Shown here: positions 6,760 to 63,102 of the stretch, in pieces
Layout: each line of letters opens with the position of its first letter
Position numbering within the stretch: the stretch's first letter is position 1
Virus record (IMG/VR): IMGVR_UViG_3300035454_001303
Span: 1 to 64,000 of that record
DNA from: a virus
Taxonomy: Duplodnaviria > Caudoviricetes
Length of the DNA: 64,000 nt
Strand: one strand, 5' to 3'
Made by a program: the position numbers and the translations under genes
The notes under the pieces: generated by a model
What the model was told of the DNA's origin: nothing
Databases searched by the model: none
The model's input: the letters and a program-made list of their open reading frames with translations, nothing else

Positions 6760-7051
6760 AGGCTGGCTCAGGAAGAGCCATTTTATCCTTCAGCATGTCC
6801 TTCACTGTCCATTGGTCCATAGGGACCGGCTTGTAGTATTCCGCAGCGGCAATCGCTGTTTCTTCATCGGTGATCGTGATCGAGTAGATCGCGCCGGGGC
6901 CGAAGAGCTTTGTGAAGGGTTTCTGTTCCCCAATCGCGGGCACGTCCACGCGCACGAAAGACGACCCACCTACCTGTTGTTCCGAGATCTTTCCGGCTAT
7001 TCTCTGATGTCCGAAGAGGTCAATGATTGCCCATTCCTCAAATTTTTCCAT
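6737..7051 (-). CDS. Phage hypothetical protein
   Basis: WAIIDLFGHQRIAG...FVRVDVP...GAIYSIT; recurrent prophage family of unknown function. Confidence 0.65.
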   Translation of the reverse strand: MEKFEEWAIIDLFGHQRIAGKISEQQVGGSSFVRVDVPAIGEQKPFTKLFGPGAIYSITITDEETAIAAAEYYKPVPMDQWTVKDMLKDKMALPEPAYENEDGL

Positions 7052-7076
7052 GATTGCGCCGTCCTTTCCGTGCGGT

Positions 7077-7640
7077 CTATTTCTTGCTGTTGATCCACTT
7101 ATTGATCTGCTCGAACATATCCAGGCTGTGATAGCAGTCCATCGGCCATTTCATCGCGTCGCTTCCGTCATACCAATGGCCGGTGTAGGGATTCGCCTTG
7201 CCATCCTCAAACCAATCAGGATGTTCCTCTTTGGCTTTCTTCAGCCATTCCTCCCTTTGCGGGTTCCTGGTACAGAAGCAGCACGGACGCTCTCCGGATG
7301 GTTGTCCGGGGAAGGGATGAGCCGCCGACGAATGGCAGCATCCGAAGCAAAATAGCGGATTCTCGTTTTCGGTCTGATGATGCTCCTCTGCCTCTGCTCG
7401 CTGAGGAACCCTCTCTTCTTTGCTCCCTGACGCGTCCAGAGGCCACAGAACGGAGTCTTCAAATTCATTGCTTTTAACTATGTCTATGATCGATTGCGAT
7501 GCGGGAAACGTCTTGTGGTGCCATCCCTGCACGCCAAGAGGACAGTCCCCATGCGCCTCGATAAAAACGTAAACCTGGGTAAGTTCGTCCTCAATTACGA
7601 ACCTCACTTCTTTGTATTCCATGCTCGCCTTGCCCATCAC
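7077..7640 (-). CDS. Hypothetical protein with Cys/His-rich segment
   Basis: In operon orientation; CFGCCH...CCFC. Confidence 0.45.
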   Translation of the reverse strand: MMGKASMEYKEVRFVIEDELTQVYVFIEAHGDCPLGVQGWHHKTFPASQSIIDIVKSNEFEDSVLWPLDASGSKEERVPQRAEAEEHHQTENENPLFCFGCCHSSAAHPFPGQPSGERPCCFCTRNPQREEWLKKAKEEHPDWFEDGKANPYTGHWYDGSDAMKWPMDCYHSLDMFEQINKWINSKK

Positions 7641-7665
7641 ATCCCCCTGATTTTAAGAATTTCCA

Positions 7666-7723
7666 AAGGGGGCGGGCTGTCGCCCGCCCCACAGATTTAC
7701 AGACTACGCTCAACCGATATAGG
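7666..7723 (-). promoter_or_regulatory. DGR IMH plus GC-rich hairpin of the distal target
   Basis: 58 bp identical to 57591-57648, including GGGGCGGGC-GACA-GCCCGCCCC. Confidence 0.9.
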
Positions 7724-8693
7724 CGAGGCGGAACCCGAGGGCCGTGTACACGCCCGTGCGCGCGCTGCCGAGGTCCAACGCAGCGACCCCGGCACTGGCA
7801 CCGCCGCCCCAGTACCCAAAGCGGATCGGAACGCAAGTGGCGCGGGCGGAGTTATCGGCCCACATATACCCGAGTGGTTCGGGGTGATCGTCTTTCTTTG
7901 TCAGCGAACTGGGGGCGATAAGGGCTTGCCGCAAGGAGACGGGAACGCCATATCCTGCCTTGATCGATACATCCTTAAAGGACTGTGAAAGCCAGTCGCG
8001 CCGCGTGATTTCATCTGAGATTTGAATTCCGTCAACGCCATCGATCCTTGCCCCTGTGTCGGGCCAATTCTTTTCGGGCAGCGTGAAGTCGTTGTCGGAA
8101 GGCATGACGATCTTTCCGCCCACGAGCTTCAGGCCGTCCTGATGCTCCCAAATATTCCCCACCAGGTCAGCGACGCCGGCGATGGTTCCGTCATGACGCC
8201 ATGAGAGCGGCCCCGATCCGGTCATGGTTTTGCCGTATTCGCACACCATTCCCTTTTCTTCGGGGCACGAGTGCGACTTCCCGTAATCGGTGTTCCCCCT
8301 AGGGAGTCCGTTTTTCATGCACCACAAGGCAAGGGCCGCAGATTCCCAGTTGGTCATCATGTGAAAATTGGGACCGCAGGCGAGACATGTCTTGATTGCG
8401 TCATCGTGATTGATCGAGGCGCGCGGGTTTTGATAGGGGAGCGAAAGGGCTTGGCCGTCTTGAACGATGGATAGGTACGTGCCGATCATCATCTCCGTGA
8501 CTTCTCTTCCGCCTACGATGAAGGCCGGGTGAAGACCGGTTCCAAGGTCTTCGGCAATATCTTCGCATCTAAAGGCCGGGATGATGGTCATGAAGGTTGG
8601 CAAGCCCTTTTCCGTATAAAGGACGGTGCATTTTCCTTCCGTGGCCGCTTCGACTGATTTCCGCAGTGGATCAGGTGTCAAAATTGTTGTCAT
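7710..8693 (-). CDS. Distal DGR target protein, CLec/FGE-sulfatase-like fold; paralog of 56588..57604
   Basis: DPLRKSVEAATEG..., HPAFIVGG, SGPLSWRHDGT, GNIWE; C-terminal VR ending LGFRLAYIG, the same as the tail target. Confidence 0.9.
   Translation of the reverse strand: MTTILTPDPLRKSVEAATEGKCTVLYTEKGLPTFMTIIPAFRCEDIAEDLGTGLHPAFIVGGREVTEMMIGTYLSIVQDGQALSLPYQNPRASINHDDAIKTCLACGPNFHMMTNWESAALALWCMKNGLPRGNTDYGKSHSCPEEKGMVCEYGKTMTGSGPLSWRHDGTIAGVADLVGNIWEHQDGLKLVGGKIVMPSDNDFTLPEKNWPDTGARIDGVDGIQISDEITRRDWLSQSFKDVSIKAGYGVPVSLRQALIAPSSLTKKDDHPEPLGYMWADNSARATCVPIRFGYWGGGASAGVAALDLGSARTGVYTALGFRLAYIG
7724..7834 (-). repeat. DGR variable repeat VR2
   Basis: Hand alignment to TR 58053-58163: 111 nt, 16 mismatches, all at TR adenines. 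Confidence 0.95.
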
Positions 8694-8738
8694 AACTCTC
8701 TCCTTTTTCTGTAAAATGACGGTAAAATATGCCTCAAA

Positions 8739-9800
8739 TTATTCCTGTGATTCTTCAGCCCAGGCCAGCATTGCGGAAAGCTCTTGTGCCCATTCCGTTG
8801 ATATCCGAATCCGAAGGAACGTCTTGAAAAGCTCATCCATCACGTCGATCATGGCGGACACCATGAACAGCCTCTCCAGGTTTCGGCCTTCTGGTGTCTC
8901 GTTTTCCTCCACTTCGGCGCTCATGGGGAGCTTCACGGACTGGAACTGGAAGGAATCCCCCTTGTAGCCAAACTCCCAAGCCGTACCGTCCTTTTCGATT
9001 CTAAGCCGGGCATCCTTGACCTTTTTCCCCTGCCGAAGGGCCTCTTTTGCTTCGTTGAGATCGAAGTTCACCCCGGAGCATACGACGGTCTCGGTCATCT
9101 CTCCTTCGCCGGACTCAAGGGCCATGCGACGGACAAAGTTGACGGCATAGTCTTCACCATTCATGGCAATTTTCCCGTCTCTTTGCTGGCTCTTGAACCA
9201 CAGCCAGGTCATGAATTCGCGGCCTACTGTCATCAGAGACAGTCCGGCTTTCTCCAGGTCTTCATTGCTCACCAGGTCAAAGAATTTGACGCGTAACCCG
9301 AAAGCTTCCTTAAAAATGTCCATGAATTCCTGAATCAATTTATTGGTGAGGAATGACACATAGACGATCCCCGAAGTGGTATTGATCGCCACGTCGTATA
9401 TGGCGGTTACGGGAGGGATATTTTTGAGAAGCTCCGTCCGCACGGCTTCCCTGATACGCTCACGCTGTTCTCTGTAAAGCCTCTTCTGCCCGCTTTCCTG
9501 AAGGTACTTTTTCGTTTCTTCAAGGACCCGGATCTTCATTGTCGAGGCGGGAATTGCGCGCCGGTCGATCCGCAGAGAAAACACGCGATAATCTCCCAAA
9601 AGGGTCGTTTCGGTTATGAAATTTGCATCCAAGCAGTCATTGATCGAGACGAAGCCAGCATTCTTTTCCGCATTTTCGGGGAATAGATTGCTGAAGGCCA
9701 TCTTCTTGATTTGCTCATCGAACATCGGCAAGGACATATCCTCTCCATCGATTTGAAGCCGCGTTATTCCCGAAATGTTTCCGACAAAAAATCCGCTCAT
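8739..9800 (-). CDS. rdgC: Recombination-associated protein RdgC (fused two-domain form)
   Basis: N-term ...FSLRIDRRAIPAST...VRTELLKNIPP; C-term GREFMTWLWFKS resembles the second gene of the deltaproteobacterial rdgC pair. Confidence 0.75.
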   Translation of the reverse strand: MSGFFVGNISGITRLQIDGEDMSLPMFDEQIKKMAFSNLFPENAEKNAGFVSINDCLDANFITETTLLGDYRVFSLRIDRRAIPASTMKIRVLEETKKYLQESGQKRLYREQRERIREAVRTELLKNIPPVTAIYDVAINTTSGIVYVSFLTNKLIQEFMDIFKEAFGLRVKFFDLVSNEDLEKAGLSLMTVGREFMTWLWFKSQQRDGKIAMNGEDYAVNFVRRMALESGEGEMTETVVCSGVNFDLNEAKEALRQGKKVKDARLRIEKDGTAWEFGYKGDSFQFQSVKLPMSAEVEENETPEGRNLERLFMVSAMIDVMDELFKTFLRIRISTEWAQELSAMLAWAEESQE

Positions 9801-9821
9801 AGTTCTCTCCTTTTCAAATAG

Positions 9822-10631
9822 TTATCCAATTTCTTCTTCCGGCAATCCCAAGATCTTCTTGATGCTATCCTTCCAATGAACTTGCGGCTTTTCATTCAGG
9901 CGCCTATAGAGGTCCTTTATGAATTCGTTCGATTGGGCATCGAAGACGCGATGCAGGAACGATCTTTCCTTGCTTGACCATCCATCAGTATTGACGCGGT
10001 GGGAAATCCGGTTCATCTTTCCGATCCAGATCGAATCCGTCACGAGTAATGAAACCGCATTGACCAACTCGTAAATCTTGTTGTCGAGGTAGGGTTCACA
10101 AGACACGGACGTTTCAAACCCGCTTGCATAAGCAGTCCACAGGCTTTCGTATCGTTCGTCATATGTCGGTGCTCCGGGCTCCCAAAATGCCAGGATATCG
10201 TTGTTCATGCTGCCAATAGTGAACCTGAAGACGATCTGCCTGCGATACTTCAGAAGCTCTCCGCAGAGGTGCTTCACGACATCATGATGGGGCTTCGTAA
10301 CGATCAAGACCTGATTTAGGCTCGAAGCCTCCAGCATCGATTTGAGGGTTGCCGTAACAACATCAAGATGCTCAGGAAAGAGATCGTGGGTGGACGGGAA
10401 CATGATCCGGCGCGGCTGGGCAAAAAGCCGAGCGGCTTTCTTGCGCGCCAGATCGCTTTCGGCCCTTTTGTTCAGCCTCATTTCTTTCCACTGGCCCGCT
10501 GCCTTGATCTGTCCGAATCGCAGGGCGTTTGCTCTGGCGTAGCAGTAACGGCAATCGTGCCGGCATCCGACATAGAGGTTCCTGGTATCGTTTGCCCATT
10601 CCCTGGTTCCTTTTTTTCGTGCTGGTTCCAT
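9822..10631 (-). CDS. DUF5131/Gp37Gp68-like radical-SAM-type protein
   Basis: TREWA...NLYVGCRHDCRYCYA, THDLF, LIVTKP, VSCEP motifs. Confidence 0.75.
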   Translation of the reverse strand: MEPARKKGTREWANDTRNLYVGCRHDCRYCYARANALRFGQIKAAGQWKEMRLNKRAESDLARKKAARLFAQPRRIMFPSTHDLFPEHLDVVTATLKSMLEASSLNQVLIVTKPHHDVVKHLCGELLKYRRQIVFRFTIGSMNNDILAFWEPGAPTYDERYESLWTAYASGFETSVSCEPYLDNKIYELVNAVSLLVTDSIWIGKMNRISHRVNTDGWSSKERSFLHRVFDAQSNEFIKDLYRRLNEKPQVHWKDSIKKILGLPEEEIG

Positions 10632-23190: not shown

Positions 23191-23733
23191 TCACATTGCC
23201 TTCTTTTTTTTGATAGACGATTCTCTTTTTTTCTCTTTTGTACCCGAGCAGTCTTGCCGTTCCCGGTTCTTTAATTCCCTTACGTCTTCTTCGAGTTTTT
23301 CAATCTTCGCATCACGCTGTGCCGCCTTTTCATCTTTGATTACAGATTCTTTGAACTCTCTTATATTCGATGACAGCGCTTGCTTTACGCCAGGATTCTT
23401 TGAGTTAAAAATATATTCGAGATCCGGATAGACGGCCCGCAACTCAGAGGGCATAAGCACAATTGGGATATCTACATCGGGAGGTGCCGGGGAAGATGCG
23501 TCCTTGTTCCCTCTCCCTGTCAGCAACCAGTCGATGTTTATATCCAAGTATTCCTTTATTAGTAATAACTGCCGGATATCTGGAAGAGATTGGCCCAAAC
23601 ACCATACCCTAACCGTTTCCATGGCTACGTCTACGGCTTTAGCAAATTCGCTTTTATTTCTGTTTTCGATAGCTTTTTTCAGACGGTCGCCAAAGCCATC
23701 GTAAACAGATTTATCTGGCTTTTTTCTTGACAT
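23191..23733 (-). CDS. CI-like repressor (XRE HTH)
   Basis: FGDRLKKAI...SEFAKAVDVAMETVRVWCLGQSLPD...INIDWLLTG; divergent from PR; no S24 peptidase domain visible. Confidence 0.85.
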   Translation of the reverse strand: MSRKKPDKSVYDGFGDRLKKAIENRNKSEFAKAVDVAMETVRVWCLGQSLPDIRQLLLIKEYLDINIDWLLTGRGNKDASSPAPPDVDIPIVLMPSELRAVYPDLEYIFNSKNPGVKQALSSNIREFKESVIKDEKAAQRDAKIEKLEEDVRELKNRERQDCSGTKEKKRESSIKKKKAM

Positions 23734-24528: not shown

Positions 24529-25002
24529 ATGAAATCATACGAGGCCATCCAGAGGGCGGTAGCTGGGAAAACGATAGAACACGCGAAGCGGCTCCATAAA
24601 TCGGTGCCGCTTCTTCATAAATGGATGGAGCCCTCGACTGACTTCGATGATTCCGGATCGTACAACCCCCTTGATCGTATCGAAACGATCATCGAAACAA
24701 GCCTATCTCTCGGGTGCCATCCAGATGATGCGGTCGCACCCATCCAATACCTTGCCGAACGTTTCAGCCTCATAGTCATTTCCATCCCCAAAACAAACGG
24801 GAAGATGGAAGACCTGTCGAAAGAACTCCTGAAGACCATTTCTGAGTTTGGTGATCTCTCGAAGGAAGCATCGAAGTCCATGAGGAACGGAACCATATCT
24901 ATGAGCGAAGCAAAGCGGATTGAAAAAGAAGCCTGGGAGTTGAGCCGCCAAGTATCCGTGTTCATCCAAAAGGTGAACCTGGTGGCCGCTTCGAGAGGGT
25001 AA
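24529..25002 (+). CDS. Phage regulatory protein, CII/CP76-like
   Basis: AKRLHKSVPLLHKW...NPLD...IQYLAERF...EFGDL...DGTIS-like C-terminus. Confidence 0.7.
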   Translation: MKSYEAIQRAVAGKTIEHAKRLHKSVPLLHKWMEPSTDFDDSGSYNPLDRIETIIETSLSLGCHPDDAVAPIQYLAERFSLIVISIPKTNGKMEDLSKELLKTISEFGDLSKEASKSMRNGTISMSEAKRIEKEAWELSRQVSVFIQKVNLVAASRG

Positions 25003-55256: not shown

Positions 55257-56162
55257 ATGGCATTACCACATGCAGCAATTACGCCCATACCGAACAATGA
55301 GCCCGATGCCGTTCCCAGTCTTTGGAATGATCGTTATCTGGAAATTGACGAGAATTTTGAAAACTTGGATGAACGGGCGGCGGCCCTGGAAAGCGAGGTG
55401 CAGGCTGCGCGAGGCGGTCAGGCGTCTATGGATCAGCGCCTTGATCAGATCGAAACCAACGTGGAGGGGCTTGATCCCGAGTTTCAGAACAACCTGATTG
55501 CGGCTGTTCTGGCGGCCACGGACTTGGCAGCCCTGGCAAATAAGGAACTGGACCGGTTCCGGCGCGTCCGTATTCAGGAAGGGGAAACGACTATCTATAA
55601 TCGGGGAATCATTTCCGGTTGCGCGATTACACGAAAGGCAGCGGATGTAAGAATCCTGAGCCTGGCCCTTGGGAGTCTGTTTATCCACGGGCGCTCATAC
55701 AGCGTGCCAGCCGATGCCGACGCCACTTCCGTACCGCCGAACCCCGGAGCCAGTTCCGCAACCTGCTATGTCTATCTCTACATCGATGAGACTGGCACGG
55801 TCGAATGCCAATGCACGGCGCTGAATGCGGCGGCACCATCCACAGGCCTTGTAGTCTACACGATTACGGTTCCCGCTGGCAGCACGAATGACGGAGACGC
55901 CTTCACAATCACGGATGCACGGCGTGTATGTACGGGCTGGCCCAATGTGTTCGTGTCTCCCATCTATGCTTCGATTGCCCTGCCCTATGTCCTGCCCGAC
56001 GCGAATTATGCAGTGCATCTGGATGTGGCGTCCTGCGAAGGCGGGCGGCAGCAGATCGGGGCGCTGGAAGTCGAGGACCGGCTGACGAACGGATTTAAAA
56101 TTTACCTGGCGGGGGCGGCGGATGCAGTGAAGGTGCGCTACCACGTCCAGCGGATGATTTAA
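55257..56162 (+). CDS. Tail fibre shaft protein
   Basis: N-terminal coiled coil; C-terminal LPD.NY.V...TNGFKI gp53-like domain. Confidence 0.65.
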   Translation: MALPHAAITPIPNNEPDAVPSLWNDRYLEIDENFENLDERAAALESEVQAARGGQASMDQRLDQIETNVEGLDPEFQNNLIAAVLAATDLAALANKELDRFRRVRIQEGETTIYNRGIISGCAITRKAADVRILSLALGSLFIHGRSYSVPADADATSVPPNPGASSATCYVYLYIDETGTVECQCTALNAAAPSTGLVVYTITVPAGSTNDGDAFTITDARRVCTGWPNVFVSPIYASIALPYVLPDANYAVHLDVASCEGGRQQIGALEVEDRLTNGFKIYLAGAADAVKVRYHVQRMI

Positions 56163-56587: not shown

Positions 56588-57604
56588 ATGCTGATTTTCA
56601 ATAAAGATCCTTTGAGGGCTTCGGTAGAGGCGGCAACTGGCGGCAGGGTTACGGTGCTCTATGACGATAAGGGGTATCCGTCCTATATGTGCGTGATCCC
56701 GAAATTCCTCGTGGAAACCATCGACGCGGATCTCGGGGCAGGTGTCCATCCGGCCTTCATCGTGAACGGTGTGGAAAAGTCCGAGATCTTCATCGGCCAG
56801 TTCAAGGCCAATGTTCTGGACGGTCGCGCCCTCTCTTTGCCCGGCTACGATCCGACCGCGAGTGTCAATTTTGACACGGCGAAGGGCTACTGCACGGCCA
56901 AGGGGACCGGCTGGCATCTCATGTCAAACTGGGAGGCCGCAGCGCTGGCCCTCTACTGCATCAAGAACGGGCAGCCCCGTGGCAATACCGATTACGGCAG
57001 ACACCACACATCGACTCACGAGTGCGGTCGTCGGCAGGACGGCGTTGCTCCCGGTACCGCCTCCGGCACGGCACGGACCCTGAACGGTTCCGGCCCTGCT
57101 TCCTGGCGTCATGATGGCACCCTTGCCGGAGTGGACGGCCTGTGCGGAAACATTTGGGAATGGGTTGACGGGATGAAACTTGTCAACGGTAAATTTTATT
57201 TCCCCGATGACAACTACTTTACCCAGGCTGAAGGGTCCTGGAAGGACCAGGGCGTGATTATGGCCGAAGACACGGGCGACAAGCTAGGTGTGGCCGGTAC
57301 GGATACGTTACACGCCTCTGGCGGCGTCGGGTTCGGGGCATGGAAAGGTCTCACCAGAACCACGGCCTATGCCGCCCTTTCCGACACGATCAAGCGGCGT
57401 TTCATGCAGGCCATGATCGACCCGGCGTTCAACAGTAGCGACCCTGTAGGGTATTTCTATTTCGACACCGATGGCGAGCGCGTTCCGCTCCGCTTTGGGG
57501 GCTGGGGCTACGGTGCCGATGCCGGGGTCGCTGCGTTGTACCTCAGCAACGCGCGCGCGGTCGTGGTCACGACCCTCGGGTTCCGCCTCGCCTATATCGG
57601 TTGA
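56588..57604 (+). CDS. Proximal DGR target: tail adhesin, Mtd-like CLec/FGE-sulfatase fold
   Basis: Last tail gene; HPAFIV, MSNWE, GNIWEWVDG; C-terminal VR ending LGFRLAYIG. Confidence 0.9.
   Translation: MLIFNKDPLRASVEAATGGRVTVLYDDKGYPSYMCVIPKFLVETIDADLGAGVHPAFIVNGVEKSEIFIGQFKANVLDGRALSLPGYDPTASVNFDTAKGYCTAKGTGWHLMSNWEAAALALYCIKNGQPRGNTDYGRHHTSTHECGRRQDGVAPGTASGTARTLNGSGPASWRHDGTLAGVDGLCGNIWEWVDGMKLVNGKFYFPDDNYFTQAEGSWKDQGVIMAEDTGDKLGVAGTDTLHASGGVGFGAWKGLTRTTAYAALSDTIKRRFMQAMIDPAFNSSDPVGYFYFDTDGERVPLRFGGWGYGADAGVAALYLSNARAVVVTTLGFRLAYIG
57478..57590 (+). repeat. DGR variable repeat VR1
   Basis: Hand alignment to TR 58051-58163: 113 nt, 16 mismatches, all at TR adenines. Confidence 0.95.
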
Positions 57605-57648
57605 GCGTAGTCTGTAAATCTGTGGGGCGGGCGACAGCCCGCCCCCTT
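57591..57648 (+). promoter_or_regulatory. DGR IMH plus 9-bp GC hairpin with GACA loop
   Basis: GGGGCGGGC (57624-57632)-GACA-GCCCGCCCC (57637-57645); identical copy at 7666-7723. Confidence 0.9.
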
Positions 57649-57671: not shown

Positions 57672-58037
57672 ATGACGAAAAATCTGATTATCTACGAAAA
57701 GACTCTGGAAATGATCGAATACGGCACTATCGCGCTCCGTCAATTCCCCCGATATGAGAAATTTGTACTGGCGGCCATGATTCGGCAACAGATGTATGAA
57801 GTTCTGAAGCTGATCGTGGAGACCAATAAACGGACATACCGGAAAACAGCGCTGACCGAACTGGATATTGCCCATGAAACGCTCCGGCATTTGGTGGACC
57901 TCTCCTATCGGCGGTTGAAGTATCTCGATCACAAGAAATACACCCTGTGGATGGAGAAGATCAACGAAGTCGGTAAATTGTTGGGAGGGTGGATTCGCTC
58001 CCAGCGAGAAGGGGCACAGCCTGCAAAGAATGTTTAA
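57672..58037 (+). CDS. avd: DGR accessory variability determinant Avd
   Basis: L.IYEK...QFPRYEKFVL..MIR...LTELD...LV.LS...INEVGKLLGGWI four-helix-bundle pattern; between target and TR. Confidence 0.92.
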   Translation: MTKNLIIYEKTLEMIEYGTIALRQFPRYEKFVLAAMIRQQMYEVLKLIVETNKRTYRKTALTELDIAHETLRHLVDLSYRRLKYLDHKKYTLWMEKINEVGKLLGGWIRSQREGAQPAKNV

Positions 58038-58050
58038 TGAAGCTCTGTTA

Positions 58051-58163
58051 GCGCGTTCCGATCCGCTTTGGGAACTGGAACAACGGTGCCAATGCCGGGG
58101 TCGCTGCGTTGAACCTCAACAACGCGCGCACGAACGTGAACACGAACATCGGGTTCCGCCTCG
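58051..58163 (+). ncRNA. DGR template repeat (TR)
   Basis: AAC-rich template (NWNNGANAG...NLNNARTNVNTNIGFR) matching both VRs except at adenines; IMH* diverges (GACTTTGA vs GCCTATAT). Confidence 0.95.
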
Positions 58164-58318
58164 ACTTTGAATATGCCAGAAGGCGCCTGCTTACGGGCAG
58201 AGGCCCAGTGCAATTTCATAGGGAGGCTGTGTCCTTCCCGAAAGGGAAGATAGCCCAAAAGCCTTCATGTCTGAGTAGCAATGCCGAAACGTCATGAAGG
58301 CACTTTTAAAAGGAAAAG

Positions 58319-59347
58319 ATGAAACGTTATCATCATTTATATTCAAGAATCTGCGACATGGATAATCTTGAGGCGGCATGGAAGTACGTCCGTCTTGGAA
58401 AACGGTACGATAAGGAGGTTCTGCGCTTCGGATACTACACCCTGCAAAACGTCATCCAACTTCATAATGAACTGACCTGGAAGAACTATCGAATCGGTCA
58501 GTATCGCGAATTTATTATTAAGGATCCGAAAGAGCGCCTCATCCAATACTTACCCCTGCGCGACCGCATCGTTCAGCAGGCCCTTCACCAGGTGATCGAG
58601 CCCATCTTTGACAAGGGCTTCATTGATGACTCCTATGCCTGTCGTAAAGGCAAGGGCACGCACCGTGCCATGAAGCGACTGCAATACTTTTTGAATGCAG
58701 CTCGCGAAAAATGGCCTGGGAAGGAAATTTATTATCTCCATTGTGACATTCGTAAATACTTTCCCCATATCGATCACGACGTTCTTTATGGGCTCATGAG
58801 CCGGAAGATCAAGTGCGCCGACACGCTAAAGCTCATCAGGGCCATTATTGATAGCAGTACCTCAGATCCGGGGCTTCCCATAGGCAGCCTCTTCAGTCAG
58901 CTTTCCGCCAATGTGTATTTGAACGTCCTGGATCAGTTCGCCAAGCACGACCTTCGCGAGCGCTATTACCTTCGCTACATGGATAACTTCATCATCGTTC
59001 ATCACGACAAAAAGCATTTGCAACGGGTGAAGGATGAGATTCAAGGGCTTCTTAATAATCGATTGCGCCTGGAATTCAATCCGAAGGGGACCCGGATCGA
59101 CAAAGTGGCGGGAGGAATCGAATTCGTCGGCTATCGGGTCTATGTAGACCGGGTCAAGATCAAAAAGGCAAGCATCAAGAGAATGAAGAAGCGCCTGCGG
59201 GCCATGCGGGTTATGTACCGGGAAGGAAGGGCGTCGATCTGGAACATCAGCCAGCGCATACGGTCCTGGCTGGGGCATTGTTGTCATGCCGACGCAAAAG
59301 GGATCGCCGAAAGCGTTCTGTCCGGGGCAGTATTCACACGAGGATAA
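58319..59347 (+). CDS. DGR reverse transcriptase
   Basis: PKER.I...RDRIVQQAL, SYACRKGKG, DIRKYF, GLPIGSLFSQ (DGR GxxxSQ), RYMDN, FVGY. Confidence 0.96.
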   Translation: MKRYHHLYSRICDMDNLEAAWKYVRLGKRYDKEVLRFGYYTLQNVIQLHNELTWKNYRIGQYREFIIKDPKERLIQYLPLRDRIVQQALHQVIEPIFDKGFIDDSYACRKGKGTHRAMKRLQYFLNAAREKWPGKEIYYLHCDIRKYFPHIDHDVLYGLMSRKIKCADTLKLIRAIIDSSTSDPGLPIGSLFSQLSANVYLNVLDQFAKHDLRERYYLRYMDNFIIVHHDKKHLQRVKDEIQGLLNNRLRLEFNPKGTRIDKVAGGIEFVGYRVYVDRVKIKKASIKRMKKRLRAMRVMYREGRASIWNISQRIRSWLGHCCHADAKGIAESVLSGAVFTRG

Positions 59348-59362
59348 GGAAGGAGGTTTATC

Positions 59363-59956
59363 ATGATTCATATTGATTTTGAGAAGTTCAACAAAGCGGG
59401 CTTGAAGCCAATCCTGGATAAGTTCGAGAAGGCTGCCTTGCCAATTGCCAGCGTGGACGCGGACAATAAGGCAAAGCGCGAATCCGGCTTTCAGGTAAAG
59501 ACGGCCATCATCAATTTTGAAAGCGGCCAAAAGTTGCAGGTGAAGGCCAAGGCCGGGGGATCGATCTTTCAGGTGAAGCTGAACAGCAAGGTCCTCGCCA
59601 TCAAGTACGTTGACGACCTCGATAAGGCAATTCAGGAGGTCATCGATTATGTCAAGGAAAACGAGAAATCCTACCAAAAACAGAAGGAAAAGCAGCTTGC
59701 CCGGCAGAAGGTGAACGTTCCGAAGATCAAACCGGCAAATGTGTCCGTTTCGGAACAGATCACTCAATTCCAGACAGCCATTGATGAGACCAAGGCCGCT
59801 GATGACTCGCTGAATGAGCAGATCGCGGAAGCCGAAAACTCGAAAACCGAAAAAAGCACTGTCGTAACGACTCTCGAGACGGAGCTGAGCGGTCTGGTTG
59901 CGACGGGCGAGAATCTTCAGGCCGAATATGATCAATTGAAGGAGGTGGCAGCATGA
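59363..59956 (+). CDS. hdf: P1 Hdf-like protein
   Basis: DFEKFNKAGLKPILDKF...KR.SG...FESGQ...GSIFQVKLN; C-terminal coiled coil; precedes darA. Confidence 0.8.
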   Translation: MIHIDFEKFNKAGLKPILDKFEKAALPIASVDADNKAKRESGFQVKTAIINFESGQKLQVKAKAGGSIFQVKLNSKVLAIKYVDDLDKAIQEVIDYVKENEKSYQKQKEKQLARQKVNVPKIKPANVSVSEQITQFQTAIDETKAADDSLNEQIAEAENSKTEKSTVVTTLETELSGLVATGENLQAEYDQLKEVAA

Positions 59957-62097
59957 ATCCACTGACGGAAGGAAAAAGAATCAAGCTGGGTTATGACTAC
60001 TTCGCCACGGGTTTTTCGGGGATTCAGCTTTCGGAAGCATATTACAGGCTGATTGCCGACAAGCAGCAAGAACGCCTCCTTTTCGAGACGGCGACCATTG
60101 ACGAGGTTGACGAGGCTTATAACCCCTGTGACGAAAACGACCGGATGACGACCGAAGAACTTGTTTTAGAGGCTATCCGGATTCAGCGTTTCAATCGCAC
60201 AGAATCCAAGATGACCGCCCTTGTGCGCGTCTTCAATGGGTATTTGAAGGAAAAGAACATTGAGGCCATGGCGCCGGTCATCGGAATGCCGAAGAAATCG
60301 GGCCTCTTTGCGACCGTGACCGTGCAGATTCCTTTCAGCGACGGGCAGGTGGTAAGCATTATTTTCCACAGCCCCGACAACAACAAGATGAAGATCGCGG
60401 CGGATGATGAAATCATCGCTTTTCGGTGGCTCTTGAACAAGCGGGACATCACCCATGTGGTTTCTCCGGAAAACGATGCCGAAGTCAGCCTTCAGGAAAT
60501 CGGGAAGCGAACGGCCCAGTTGGTTGAAAAGAACAGCGCCCGGTTCCAGGTCATGCAGAAGGAGCTTGTGGCGCAACGGAAGACACTTGAAGAATTGAAG
60601 ACTCAGGCCGATGAGGGGGTGAAGCATCACGATGAACTCATGGCCAAGCTGAAGGAGGGGCAGGATGCCATTGAAGCGATGGATACGAAAATCGCCAACC
60701 TCCGCAGTCAGATTGAGAAGCAGAAGGCTTTCAATGACGACCTTCAAGGAAAAGTTGACGCTCTGAAGGCGAAGCAGGCCGGGAATGACGGCAAGGCGAC
60801 CGGGGGCGAGACCCCGAAAACCGAAGCGGAAATGAAGGCAGAACAAGAACGGACGGCCTATGAAGAGAAGCGGGCGGCACTGGGAAGTGAATTGACCGGG
60901 CGCGGATTCATAGATAACGGCATGGGCGGTGTCTGGAATAAAGAGGGATTCGGATATGTCCAGGCCAGTGGCGTGGATGGATACAGCATCGCGGTAGGTT
61001 TGGCCGATGGCAGCAAGAAGACGTTCTCTTCGGCCACCGTTGCCGGTTTCGACAAGCAGGCGACCAAGGCCCTGTCCATGATCGACAAGAAGCTCAAAGC
61101 GGCTGAGATCAAGATTGACCCTGCCGTCTCAGCCCTTGATGCTACGAACGGCTTTGCGGAATTCCTCATGAAGCAGGACGAAGGCCATGTCGAAGGGTAC
61201 AGCCCGAAAGAAAGCGTTCTCAATATTGATGCGAGCGCCAAAAGCGAGGGCCTTGATGCGAAATGGTCTGAAGGGGATGATGGCGGAATGCCCGTTGCAG
61301 TCGGAACTTTCACCATCGCGGGAGGCAACCAGATCGGTGGCGTGCGGATCAGCCCGGACGGGAAGGCAATATTCTTCCTGAACGGTGAGAGATTCAGGGG
61401 TGATTACTACTTCGCAAGCGCCGACAACGAGACCCAGGACGCGGCAATGAAGGAACTCGCCGTCATTATCAAAGCAGCGAAAGAGAAGGAAGAGAGGGCC
61501 AAGCAGGTGGATGAAACAAACCGTCTTATTGAAGTCGGGAAAAATGCGGTACCGGGAGTTCGCCTTCAGGATGCGGAGGAAGCCGGGAAGCTATGGGAGA
61601 TGAAAGGACGCGGCGAGTTGTCCGAGGAAGACTGGGGCAAATATGTCGAAGACCTTAAGGCGTCGAACAAGATTGCGAAATCCAACGGGCCTCAAGCCCT
61701 CATTGGCTCAACTATGACCTCTGACGACGAAAAACGCATTCTTGCCGAGCTTGCCAACCTTGGAGAAGAGGAATTGACGCGCAGGCATGAGGAAATTCGG
61801 GCCTATATGGAAGGTCCAGACTTCGAGGATCAAGACCCCGATTACAAGAAGTCCCTCCAAAACACCGAGTTCCTGCTGTTCACGGCAAAGAGCAACGTTC
61901 CGGATGAACCAGTTGCCGTGACCGTTCTCAACGACATCCTTGCCGGAAAATATGACGGCGACTCCACGAAGCTGGGAGAGGCCCTTGACCAGGCGGCTTC
62001 CGACCTGGAGAAGGATGGGAAGGCGGAACAATATGATGCTCTTCTGAATCAAGCAGCGGACTATCTGACGGAAATTCTGAAAAAGGAGGCGGCGTAA
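59953..62097 (+). CDS. darA: P1 DarA-like antirestriction/head protein
   Basis: IPFSDGQ.VSIIFHSP...IAFRWLLNKRDITH.VSP...LVEKNSARFQ; C-term LLNQAADYL. Confidence 0.85.
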   Translation: MNPLTEGKRIKLGYDYFATGFSGIQLSEAYYRLIADKQQERLLFETATIDEVDEAYNPCDENDRMTTEELVLEAIRIQRFNRTESKMTALVRVFNGYLKEKNIEAMAPVIGMPKKSGLFATVTVQIPFSDGQVVSIIFHSPDNNKMKIAADDEIIAFRWLLNKRDITHVVSPENDAEVSLQEIGKRTAQLVEKNSARFQVMQKELVAQRKTLEELKTQADEGVKHHDELMAKLKEGQDAIEAMDTKIANLRSQIEKQKAFNDDLQGKVDALKAKQAGNDGKATGGETPKTEAEMKAEQERTAYEEKRAALGSELTGRGFIDNGMGGVWNKEGFGYVQASGVDGYSIAVGLADGSKKTFSSATVAGFDKQATKALSMIDKKLKAAEIKIDPAVSALDATNGFAEFLMKQDEGHVEGYSPKESVLNIDASAKSEGLDAKWSEGDDGGMPVAVGTFTIAGGNQIGGVRISPDGKAIFFLNGERFRGDYYFASADNETQDAAMKELAVIIKAAKEKEERAKQVDETNRLIEVGKNAVPGVRLQDAEEAGKLWEMKGRGELSEEDWGKYVEDLKASNKIAKSNGPQALIGSTMTSDDEKRILAELANLGEEELTRRHEEIRAYMEGPDFEDQDPDYKKSLQNTEFLLFTAKSNVPDEPVAVTVLNDILAGKYDGDSTKLGEALDQAASDLEKDGKAEQYDALLNQAADYLTEILKKEAA

Positions 62098-63102
62098 ATG
62101 GCTCTATCATTCTCCGAAAAGCGATCCCTGCAGAAGGTGATCGCCACGAACCTTGCCAGCCTTCAGGCGGGCAACCTGTCCTTCCAGGACAAGCGGAAGT
62201 TTCAAAAAGAGATTCAGGACGCCTTTGCCAGACTGAAGGAGGCCGTTGAACTGAAGCCCGAGGCACAGAACCAAAAGCTCGCCGATCTGATTGCCGGGAA
62301 ATACAACAACGAGCCTCCCGAGGGATTTCTGAAGGTACTGAAGGAGATCGTTGAAGAGATCAACGACATTGAGCCGGTGAAGCCGCCCACGATTGCCTAT
62401 ATCGAAGTCAATCAGGACAAAGTGAATTCGATCATGGAAAGCGCCCTGGGTGAGGTATTTGGGAAACTGTGGGATAAAACGAAGGGATTCCCTATTCCGA
62501 TCATCGGAACATCCTCTTCGCAGCAAGCCACCAACGACGCCGTCAGGGTCAAGCCGCAGGACGGCGACTACGGGCCTCCAAAAAAAATCAGTATCGACAT
62601 CGATGACGATTTCTACGGCCCTACTTCTTTTCGTGCCGTGATCAGGGCCATCGAAGAGGCCCGGGCGGGAGACACGATTGAAATCAAGCTCAACTCCAAC
62701 GGCGGAGATACCCAGGCGGCGCAAGCCATTTACGTGGCGCTCCTGAAAACGCTGGCGAAAACGAAAGCGATCATCATCAACGCCTATTCTGCGGGGAGCA
62801 TCGTCGCAATGGCCTGTGATGAGATCGAACCGACGCCCTTCTGTACCATGATGATTCACAACGCATCGACATTCAGTGGCGGGAAGCTCGGGGATCTGGC
62901 AGGGAAAGCGGCATTCCTGAATGATTACTTCGGGGAATGGTTCCAACAGCTTTACGCGGGGTTCCTTACCGAGGAAGAGCTGAAAGACATCATCAAGGGC
63001 CAGGATTTCTGGTTGAAAGAACCTCAGATCAGGGAACGCCTGAAGAACTGGAAGCCGATCCGCCAAAGACTCCAAGAAAATGGAACCATAAAGGCGGCCT
63101 GA
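62098..63102 (+). CDS. DdrA-like N-terminal domain fused to a ClpP-like serine protease
   Basis: N-term about 115 aa resembles recalled P1 DdrA and is syntenic; then LNSNGG, AYSAG, MIHN and QDFWL. Confidence 0.75.
   Translation: MALSFSEKRSLQKVIATNLASLQAGNLSFQDKRKFQKEIQDAFARLKEAVELKPEAQNQKLADLIAGKYNNEPPEGFLKVLKEIVEEINDIEPVKPPTIAYIEVNQDKVNSIMESALGEVFGKLWDKTKGFPIPIIGTSSSQQATNDAVRVKPQDGDYGPPKKISIDIDDDFYGPTSFRAVIRAIEEARAGDTIEIKLNSNGGDTQAAQAIYVALLKTLAKTKAIIINAYSAGSIVAMACDEIEPTPFCTMMIHNASTFSGGKLGDLAGKAAFLNDYFGEWFQQLYAGFLTEEELKDIIKGQDFWLKEPQIRERLKNWKPIRQRLQENGTIKAA

Follow-up and report, generated by a model that had tools for sequence, protein, structure and literature searches.

Why should a phage carry two genes for the same kind of hypervariable protein, one of them beside the retroelement that rewrites it and the other far away, on the opposite strand, among genes of DNA metabolism? 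This question is raised by the IMG/VR virus record IMGVR_UViG_3300035454_001303 (Duplodnaviria; Caudoviricetes), of whose 82,186 bp we analysed bases 1-64000 (the window; coordinates given without a locus prefix refer to it). The window contains one diversity-generating retroelement (DGR) cassette, composed of an accessory variability determinant (Avd), a template repeat (TR) and a reverse transcriptase (RT), and two target genes, each with a variable repeat (VR): the adjacent target T1 with VR1 and the remote target T2 with VR2. Such an arrangement of one cassette and two paralogous targets had been proposed in an initial annotation of the sequence, and our analysis bears it out: the two target proteins are 47% identical over their full length.

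A retroelement with an adjacent and a remote target

The components of the DGR and of its targets, including the element that contains the end of the initiation of mutagenic homing site (IMH), are:

58053-58163, plus strand: TR, followed by IMH*, which diverges from the VR flank at 58164
57480-57590, plus strand: VR1, with 16 of 16 mismatches to TR at TR adenines
7724-7834, minus strand: VR2, the variable repeat of the remote target, with 16 of 16 mismatches to TR at TR adenines
57672-58037, plus strand: avd (PF22296 bAvd, 9.6e-27)
58319-59347, plus strand: DGR reverse transcriptase (RVT_1, 8.8e-19; the sole RVT_1 match in the genome)
56588-57604, plus strand: T1, the adjacent DGR target gene, 338 aa, TaqVP-like; it closes the tail-fibre/baseplate block
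7710-8693, minus strand: T2, the remote DGR target gene, 327 aa, TaqVP-like single-domain C-type lectin (FGE subtype); phrog_2889, 1e-97
57591-57648, plus strand: recognition element after VR1, with the hairpin at 57624-57645
7666-7723, minus strand: recognition element after VR2, 100% identical to the VR1 element, with the IMH end, a spacer with two TCTG motifs and a GC hairpin at 7669-7690

TR, VR1 and VR2 align without gaps across 111 nt. The initial annotation had counted 16 mismatches to TR in each VR, all at TR adenines, and had quoted the variable peptides as GGWGYGAD...YLSNARAVVVT (VR1) and GYWGGGAS...DLGSARTGVYT (VR2); the counts and the peptides agree with our alignment. With 24 adenines among the 111 nt of TR, 16 mismatches would all hit an A by chance with a probability of about 9e-14 per VR. 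Every TR adenine occupies codon position 1 or 2, whichever of the two target frames is read. There are 15 differences between VR1 and VR2, both VRs finish 14 nt before the stop codon of their open reading frames (ORFs), and the TR and these two VRs are the only copies of the repeat in the 82,186-bp record. The system combines an RT, an Avd, adenine-only TR/VR pairs, an IMH/IMH* split, a GC hairpin and adenine-specific VR variation, i.e. the features that define a DGR, and the closest relatives of its RT (37-86% identical) are found beside Avd and TaqVP-like targets at other loci.

The two loci remain identical for 58 nt past the end of the TR homology (57591-57648 = 7723-7666), which is the shared 58-bp IMH/hairpin element described in the initial annotation. 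Its hairpin (57624-57645 = 7690-7669), with a 9-bp GC stem and a GACA loop, is located 33 nt after the end of the TR homology, and at both VRs it conforms to the rule formulated for phage DGR targets by Guo et al. 2011 (PMC3240598): a GC stem of 7-10 bp, a 4-nt GRNA loop and a spacing of 4-34 bp. In the DGR of BPP-1, any sequence equipped with the IMH and hairpin cis elements can be acted on in trans by the RT, Avd and TR (PMC3240598). The DGR analysed here resembles that of BPP-1 (mtd-avd-TR-brt) in the order target-avd-TR-RT, in the A-specific transfer from TR to VR, and in the IMH followed by a GC hairpin with a GRNA loop, but BPP-1 has one target, and here the hairpin lies 33 nt past the TR homology with TCTG motifs in between. 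The sequence fits every cis and trans requirement, and we infer the mechanism from BPP-1: the TR RNA would be copied by RT-Avd into cDNA with random bases opposite adenines, and this cDNA would replace either VR, both VRs presumably being recognised as recipients through the 3' element that they have in common (IMH, short TCTG spacer, 9-bp GC hairpin with a GRNA loop). With this element in common, both VRs could be rewritten independently from one template.

Variation in nature was assessed by comparison with a near-identical phage genome found via protein clusters (ENA sample ERZ27315072, contig k141_869791), i.e. between assemblies and not between reads. Across the left arm (18,693 nt) there are 19 differences, 17 of which are concentrated inside the 111-nt VR2 (binomial p 2e-36); 16 of these coincide with TR adenines and the remaining one with a TR thymine. 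In the 11.5 kb around the DGR, 15 of the 21 differences fall inside VR1 and TR is identical; VR1 occurs in five haplotypes over a nearly invariant scaffold. Because the differences are concentrated in VR1 and VR2 and the TR is the same, both targets are diversified in nature, and there can be little doubt that they are two active targets of one DGR. A lack of adenine-specific polymorphism at VR2, which the initial annotation had named as an outcome that would speak against its proposal, was thus not encountered.

The motif C of the RT reads YMDN and not the catalytic YMDD (58976-58987, RT residues 220-223). The closest RTs, those of the loci L005, L032 and L035, also have YMDN; among the 150 nearest 50%-cluster RT representatives, 146 have xxDD, three YMDN and one YMDV. 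We found no paper in the literature that combines 'YMDN' with 'reverse transcriptase'. As no other RT is encoded in the genome and near-identical genomes nevertheless differ in both VRs, the YMDN enzyme may be active, possibly with changed fidelity.

In TaqVP-like DGR targets, TCTG motifs occur in 2-5 copies about 8-10 nt apart between the stop codon/IMH and the hairpin (positions 57605-57623 and 7691-7709 in this phage). Their mean frequency is 2.67 per 70 nt vs 0.24 expected (75 loci, L004-L082), and they are not present downstream of TR. No description of a TCTG spacer motif was found in the DGR literature consulted for comparison. These repeats are a candidate for an additional determinant of the recipient site.

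The 3' flanks of the adjacent and the remote VR are identical or nearly so within the genome in three phages, for 57-102 nt past the TR homology (L027:11034-11110 vs L011:10941-11017; L023:11034-11135 vs L021:7659-7760; 57591-57648 vs 7723-7666). Between the three genomes the flank sequences are dissimilar, though matched within each. TR-derived cDNA cannot account for such concerted evolution of the 3' elements, which suggests either gene conversion or selection that keeps them matched to the cognate machinery.

The adjacent-plus-remote layout was found in three other phages (76-90 kb). The survey of related phages suggested in the initial annotation revealed it in G003, G004 and a syntenic relative. 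In G003 (90.5 kb, CheckV 100%) the remote VR is located about 50 kb from TR, and all of its 11 mismatches are at A; the remote VR of G004 (79.9 kb), 62 kb from TR, has 10 mismatches at A and 3 at G. The three G-position differences of G004 (L023:11483-11594 vs L021:7567-7678) are seen in TR GGGCGCGAGC vs VR GTACACGGGC; the TR of G004 may have lost adenines after the last rewriting, which would make the remote VR partly a fossil. The syntenic relative (NCBI JAHFKK010000002.1, 65-80% nucleotide identity along the arm) has a 73%-identical T2 directly after the gene for an RdgC-like protein, i.e. the position of T2 is unchanged in a relative about 27% diverged at the nucleotide level. In an ENA contig with the same T2 protein as this relative (P0102), the same tail genes are followed by a T1-type target, Avd and RT, as judged from gene order alone.

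Layouts of this type have been described before. Wu et al. 2018 (NAR 46:11, PMC5758913) reported 'many examples' of prophage DGRs with an adjacent and a non-adjacent target within about 50 kb, the targets being assigned via A-to-N-only differences from TR. VR2 has the same properties (A-to-N-only differences, one RT and one TR in the same phage); that survey did not extend to the genomic surroundings, the phylogeny or the population variation of non-adjacent targets in phages. Benler et al. 2021 (Microbiome 9:78, PMC8008677) described in Quimbyvirus ('Quimbyviridae', phages of Bacteroides) a DGR with two C-type-lectin targets, the first one after the tail-fibre genes and the second one far from these, encoded on the opposite strand in the company of genes for nucleases, methyltransferases and repair; they detected adenine-specific variation via near-identical genomes and proposed a non-structural role in phage-host conflict. 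T2 is likewise distal, on the opposite strand and among nuclease, methyltransferase and repair genes, the likeness being one of context only: Quimbyvirus belongs to another phage lineage with probably another host, its RT is encoded in three overlapping frames vs the single YMDN ORF here, and both targets are here full-length TaqVP-type paralogues, unlike in the description for Quimbyvirus. The gut phages nd4 and nd12 (Baykov et al. 2023, PMC10743442) also have two VRs, located in different genes, that draw on a single TR, with variation across related genomes, but those targets have different topologies (a tentaclin with an N-terminal VR and the small tgt2) and were described as belonging to the cassette, whereas here they are paralogues 50 kb apart. 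As the two-target adjacent/remote layout has already been published (PMC5758913, PMC8008677), it is not new; new here are the clade analysis, the remote target as a self-contained moving cassette, the concerted 3' elements and the direct evidence of variation at both VRs.

The target proteins and the clade of T2

The profile of the target family matched the structure of TaqVP (PDB 5VF4) over positions 3-323 with an hmmsearch E-value of 2e-106. The AlphaFold2 model of T2 (pLDDT 93.4) was matched to 5VF4 by Foldseek (TM-score: 0.89; E-value: 1.7e-36; identity: 35%), with Mtd structures (1yu0 to 1yu4) at TM-scores of only 0.30-0.35 and E-values above 0.03. Searches of Pfam reported no FGE-sulfatase match for T1 or T2 at E below 0.01, and the family was placed via the PDB profile and the fold. 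TaqVP, the target of a Thermus aquaticus prophage DGR (PDB 5VF4; Handa et al. 2019, PMC6328139), belongs to the same family and also has a C-terminal VR, but it is the single, adjacent target of its DGR. It has a monomeric, single-domain C-type lectin fold of the FGE type, without the trimerising domains of Mtd (PMC6328139). The N-terminal beta-prism/beta-sandwich trimerisation domains of the Mtd type were not found in T2 either, which is predicted to be a single domain, and inspection of its translation by eye revealed no N-terminal hydrophobic stretch. Given the single-domain fold of TaqVP, the conserved N-terminus of T1 and T2 belongs to the fold and does not form a separate docking domain.

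At the DNA level T1 and T2 share a stretch of 169 nt (91% identity), the 3'-terminal 71 nt of which are identical. The ratio of nonsynonymous to synonymous substitution rates (dN/dS) is 0.06-0.11 for the T2 scaffold and 0.105 for T1, i.e. purifying selection constrains the T2 scaffold as strongly as it does T1. The region of residues 215-275 is 13-15% identical between the remote and the adjacent protein of each phage and 33-38% identical among the remote proteins of different phages. T1 is located in the tail module beside fibre genes, and it is this position only from which its label 'tail adhesin' in the initial annotation derives. The following gene of that module is conserved upstream of T1-type targets:

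55257-56162, plus strand: TF301, a 301-aa tail-module protein

A tree of 81 family members from viral contigs (quick IQ-TREE search, SH-aLRT support alone) placed T2 inside a clade of 19 rows with a support of 99, and T1 elsewhere, with its orthologues from L032 and L035. The T2 clade has as its sister group the adjacent targets of G003 and G004. A TF301 homologue was found upstream of 34 out of 56 assessable targets outside the T2 clade vs 0 out of 17 T2-clade genes (Fisher p 3e-6, uncorrected for relatedness). According to this tree, T2 represents a clade of its own, with good support, rather than being a copy of the tail gene.

Members of the T2 clade are found in diverse contexts: in a Mu-like early region after gam (L004, L120/121), among ParB/primase genes with their own Avd-TR-RT (L005, L010, L014, L016, L028), in an early operon just after the repressor and followed by Avd (L118), in a replication/HNH block (L122), and at the borders of terminase genes (L006-8, L009-15, L021, L119). 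The nucleotide homology of T2 to L004 and L005 extends from the start codon to just past the hairpin; the only other genes common to the phage analysed here and these loci are the DGR (L005) and one small ORF, 34% identical (L004). The DGR-adjacent target of L005 is 79% identical at the aa level to the remote T2 and 45% to the adjacent T1, i.e. it is an orthologue of T2. Most T2-clade genes without a nearby RT have kept the GC hairpin with a GRNA-type loop. Judging from these comparisons, the T2 clade moves between unrelated phages as a self-contained ORF-IMH-hairpin unit. A search of metagenome contigs with T2 yielded no confirmed relative.

Some proteins of the T2 clade, P0022 and P0042 (L120, L121, L122), each recur with an unchanged sequence, including the VR, on 21-24 contigs, with no RT within 8 kb. 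Genes of this type, in Mu-like and other phages, may be orphan targets or inactive ones.

The role of the remote target

Analysis of the genomic neighborhood revealed that T2 is flanked by genes for RdgC-like, radical SAM, helicase, NinB, SbcCD-like and DNA methyltransferase proteins, and not by a tail module. The immediate neighbour is:

8739-9800, minus strand: RdgC-like gene, immediately preceding T2, as it also does in the syntenic relative (L117)

T2 is intact, with a start codon and a GGAG Shine-Dalgarno sequence, and belongs to an operon with tight gene spacing. A scan of 7000-10000 revealed no promoter- or terminator-like site on the minus strand, which is a weak negative. The initial annotation had placed the remote gene among DNA-metabolism genes under PL: the location in the leftward arm stands, while 'under PL', like 'early-expressed', is a reasonable analogy based on the strand, the tight spacing and the lack of a promoter or terminator of its own.

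By this analogy, T2 would be a soluble binding protein, part of neither the tail nor the virion, that is made from the leftward (recombination/accessory) operon early in lytic growth, and its diversified pocket would allow the phage population to track a variable molecule of the host or of a competitor. We consider such a role plausible, though a little short of probable; the explanation as a whole, with two live targets and a remote one that serves as a non-tail binder, is the best we can offer and is slightly more probable than not. The role is suggested by the contexts of the clade, its movement without a tail partner, the strand and neighbours of T2, and the parallel with Quimbyvirus. Several points weigh against it. 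T2 is homologous to T1 over its full length, with no extra domain to hint at another job, and shares with it the TR, hence also the pocket that is randomised; five contigs have no target beside the DGR other than a T2-clade protein; and several T2-clade genes border terminase genes on the same strand and could be expressed late. Phage DGR targets are usually taken to be receptor-binding proteins. The tree comes from a quick search with SH-aLRT values only, the context statistics ignore relatedness, and the RT has YMDN for YMDD, its presumed activity being deduced solely from the population data.

Some of these points would be expected if T2 were a second receptor-binding tip, made or reserved for use on the tail fibre that carries T1 and giving the phage two independently diversified specificities. 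The homology of the two proteins with the common TaqVP fold and TR, the recurrence of a tail-adjacent target paired with one of the T2 clade in four phages, the T2-clade genes that are sole DGR targets in some phages, and those that adjoin terminase genes on the late strand are all consistent with such a tip. However, TF301 is never found beside T2-clade genes, T2 itself is encoded on the opposite strand in the recombination arm, and residues 215-275 differ strongly between the remote and the adjacent protein of every phage. Moreover, nearly the same T2 (75-79% aa identity, N-terminus almost identical) is present in a Mu-like phage and beside ParB/primase genes in another; at the thresholds used, neither has any other gene in common with the phage analysed here, so no phage-specific docking partner travels with T2. 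The monomeric nature of TaqVP, which lacks the trimerising domains of Mtd (PMC6328139), also argues against a tip. We therefore regard the alternative tip as possible but doubtful, and the early non-tail binder is slightly favoured over it.

A silent reserve allele, now and then recombined into the tail locus via the shared VR and 3' element, had been another option in the initial annotation. The 169-nt stretch with its 71 identical 3' nucleotides could support gene conversion, and the near-identical 3' elements within each of three genomes indicate some concerted evolution. Yet T2 has the start codon, Shine-Dalgarno sequence and tight operon spacing of an expressed gene, its scaffold is under selection equal to that of T1, it is diversified independently, its homology to T1 upstream of the VR (47% aa) is too low for the exchange of cassettes, and its position is stable in the diverged relative, all of which makes this role very improbable. 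An assembly misjoin at 7666-7834, or a very recent conversion copy of VR1, was the remaining concern, fed by the 58 identical nucleotides after both VRs. The same locus is present in the IMG/VR record, in the ENA contig from another dataset and in the diverged relative, by which the misjoin is ruled out; in addition, VR2 differs from VR1 at 15 positions, the ORF around it is intact and only 47% identical to T1, and VR2 has changed on its own between near-identical genomes. The probability that we leave to an artefact or fresh copy is negligible.

Extending the non-tail binder to the whole clade, we tentatively speculate that the T2 clade comprises horizontally mobile, DGR-diversified cytoplasmic binders, a kind of 'intracellular antibody', plugged into phages with a compatible DGR or travelling with a DGR of their own, and expressed with early, recombination and anti-defence genes against variable proteins of host defence or of rival phages. 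If so, DGRs would run two arms races, adsorption via the tail target and intracellular conflict via the remote one. DGR hypermutation would then serve phage counter-defence or host takeover besides host-range switching, and the T2 protein would be a natural scaffold with a thermostable fold for selectable binders. The case is a clean example with population evidence for two live targets, in which the remote gene belongs to a coherent mobile clade found in non-tail contexts across many phage backbones. By its own statement, the large metagenome survey of DGRs by Roux et al. 2021 (PMC8144416) cannot detect remote targets; phage targets outside tail modules are therefore likely to be undercounted.

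Organization of the phage genome

The ends of the genome and its regulatory switch are marked by the following features:

1-139, strand not applicable: attachment (att) core, a direct repeat of record positions 81930-82068 (139 bp)
343-1551: integrase gene, near the left end, beside the att core
23191-23733, minus strand: repressor-like gene, one side of a divergent switch
24529-25002, plus strand: CII-like gene, the other side of the switch

An ENA contig fuses both ends of the element via a single copy of the 139-bp repeat, and a second ENA contig of 82,070 bp (k=141) has the appearance of a circular assembly; the final 118 nt of the record, beyond attR, have no counterpart at the left end. 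From the direct repeat and the end-joining contig we therefore conclude that this is an integrating, temperate phage of about 81.9 kb, which occurs both integrated and excised/circular. VR2 lies 50.2 kb away from TR in the prophage, and about 31.5 kb away when the distance is measured across att in the circular form. The minus-strand arm, which extends from the switch to the integrase, contains SbcCD-like, NinB, helicase, radical SAM (two copies), RdgC-like and DNA methyltransferase genes, and T2 is placed within this recombination arm.

The nearest named relatives of the target family come from Geobacter/Geobacteraceae, Desulfobacteraceae and other metagenome-assembled genomes (at most 52% identity), a hint only that the host may be of the Geobacter/Desulfobacterota type. 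The leftward arm also encodes a tRNA-Met (CAT) of the phage (20459-20531, minus strand). Directly after the RT gene, at 59363-63102, Pfam searches identified genes with DarA_N domains and a ClpP-like protease, so that the DGR is located between the tail-fibre genes and a block similar to Dar of P1.

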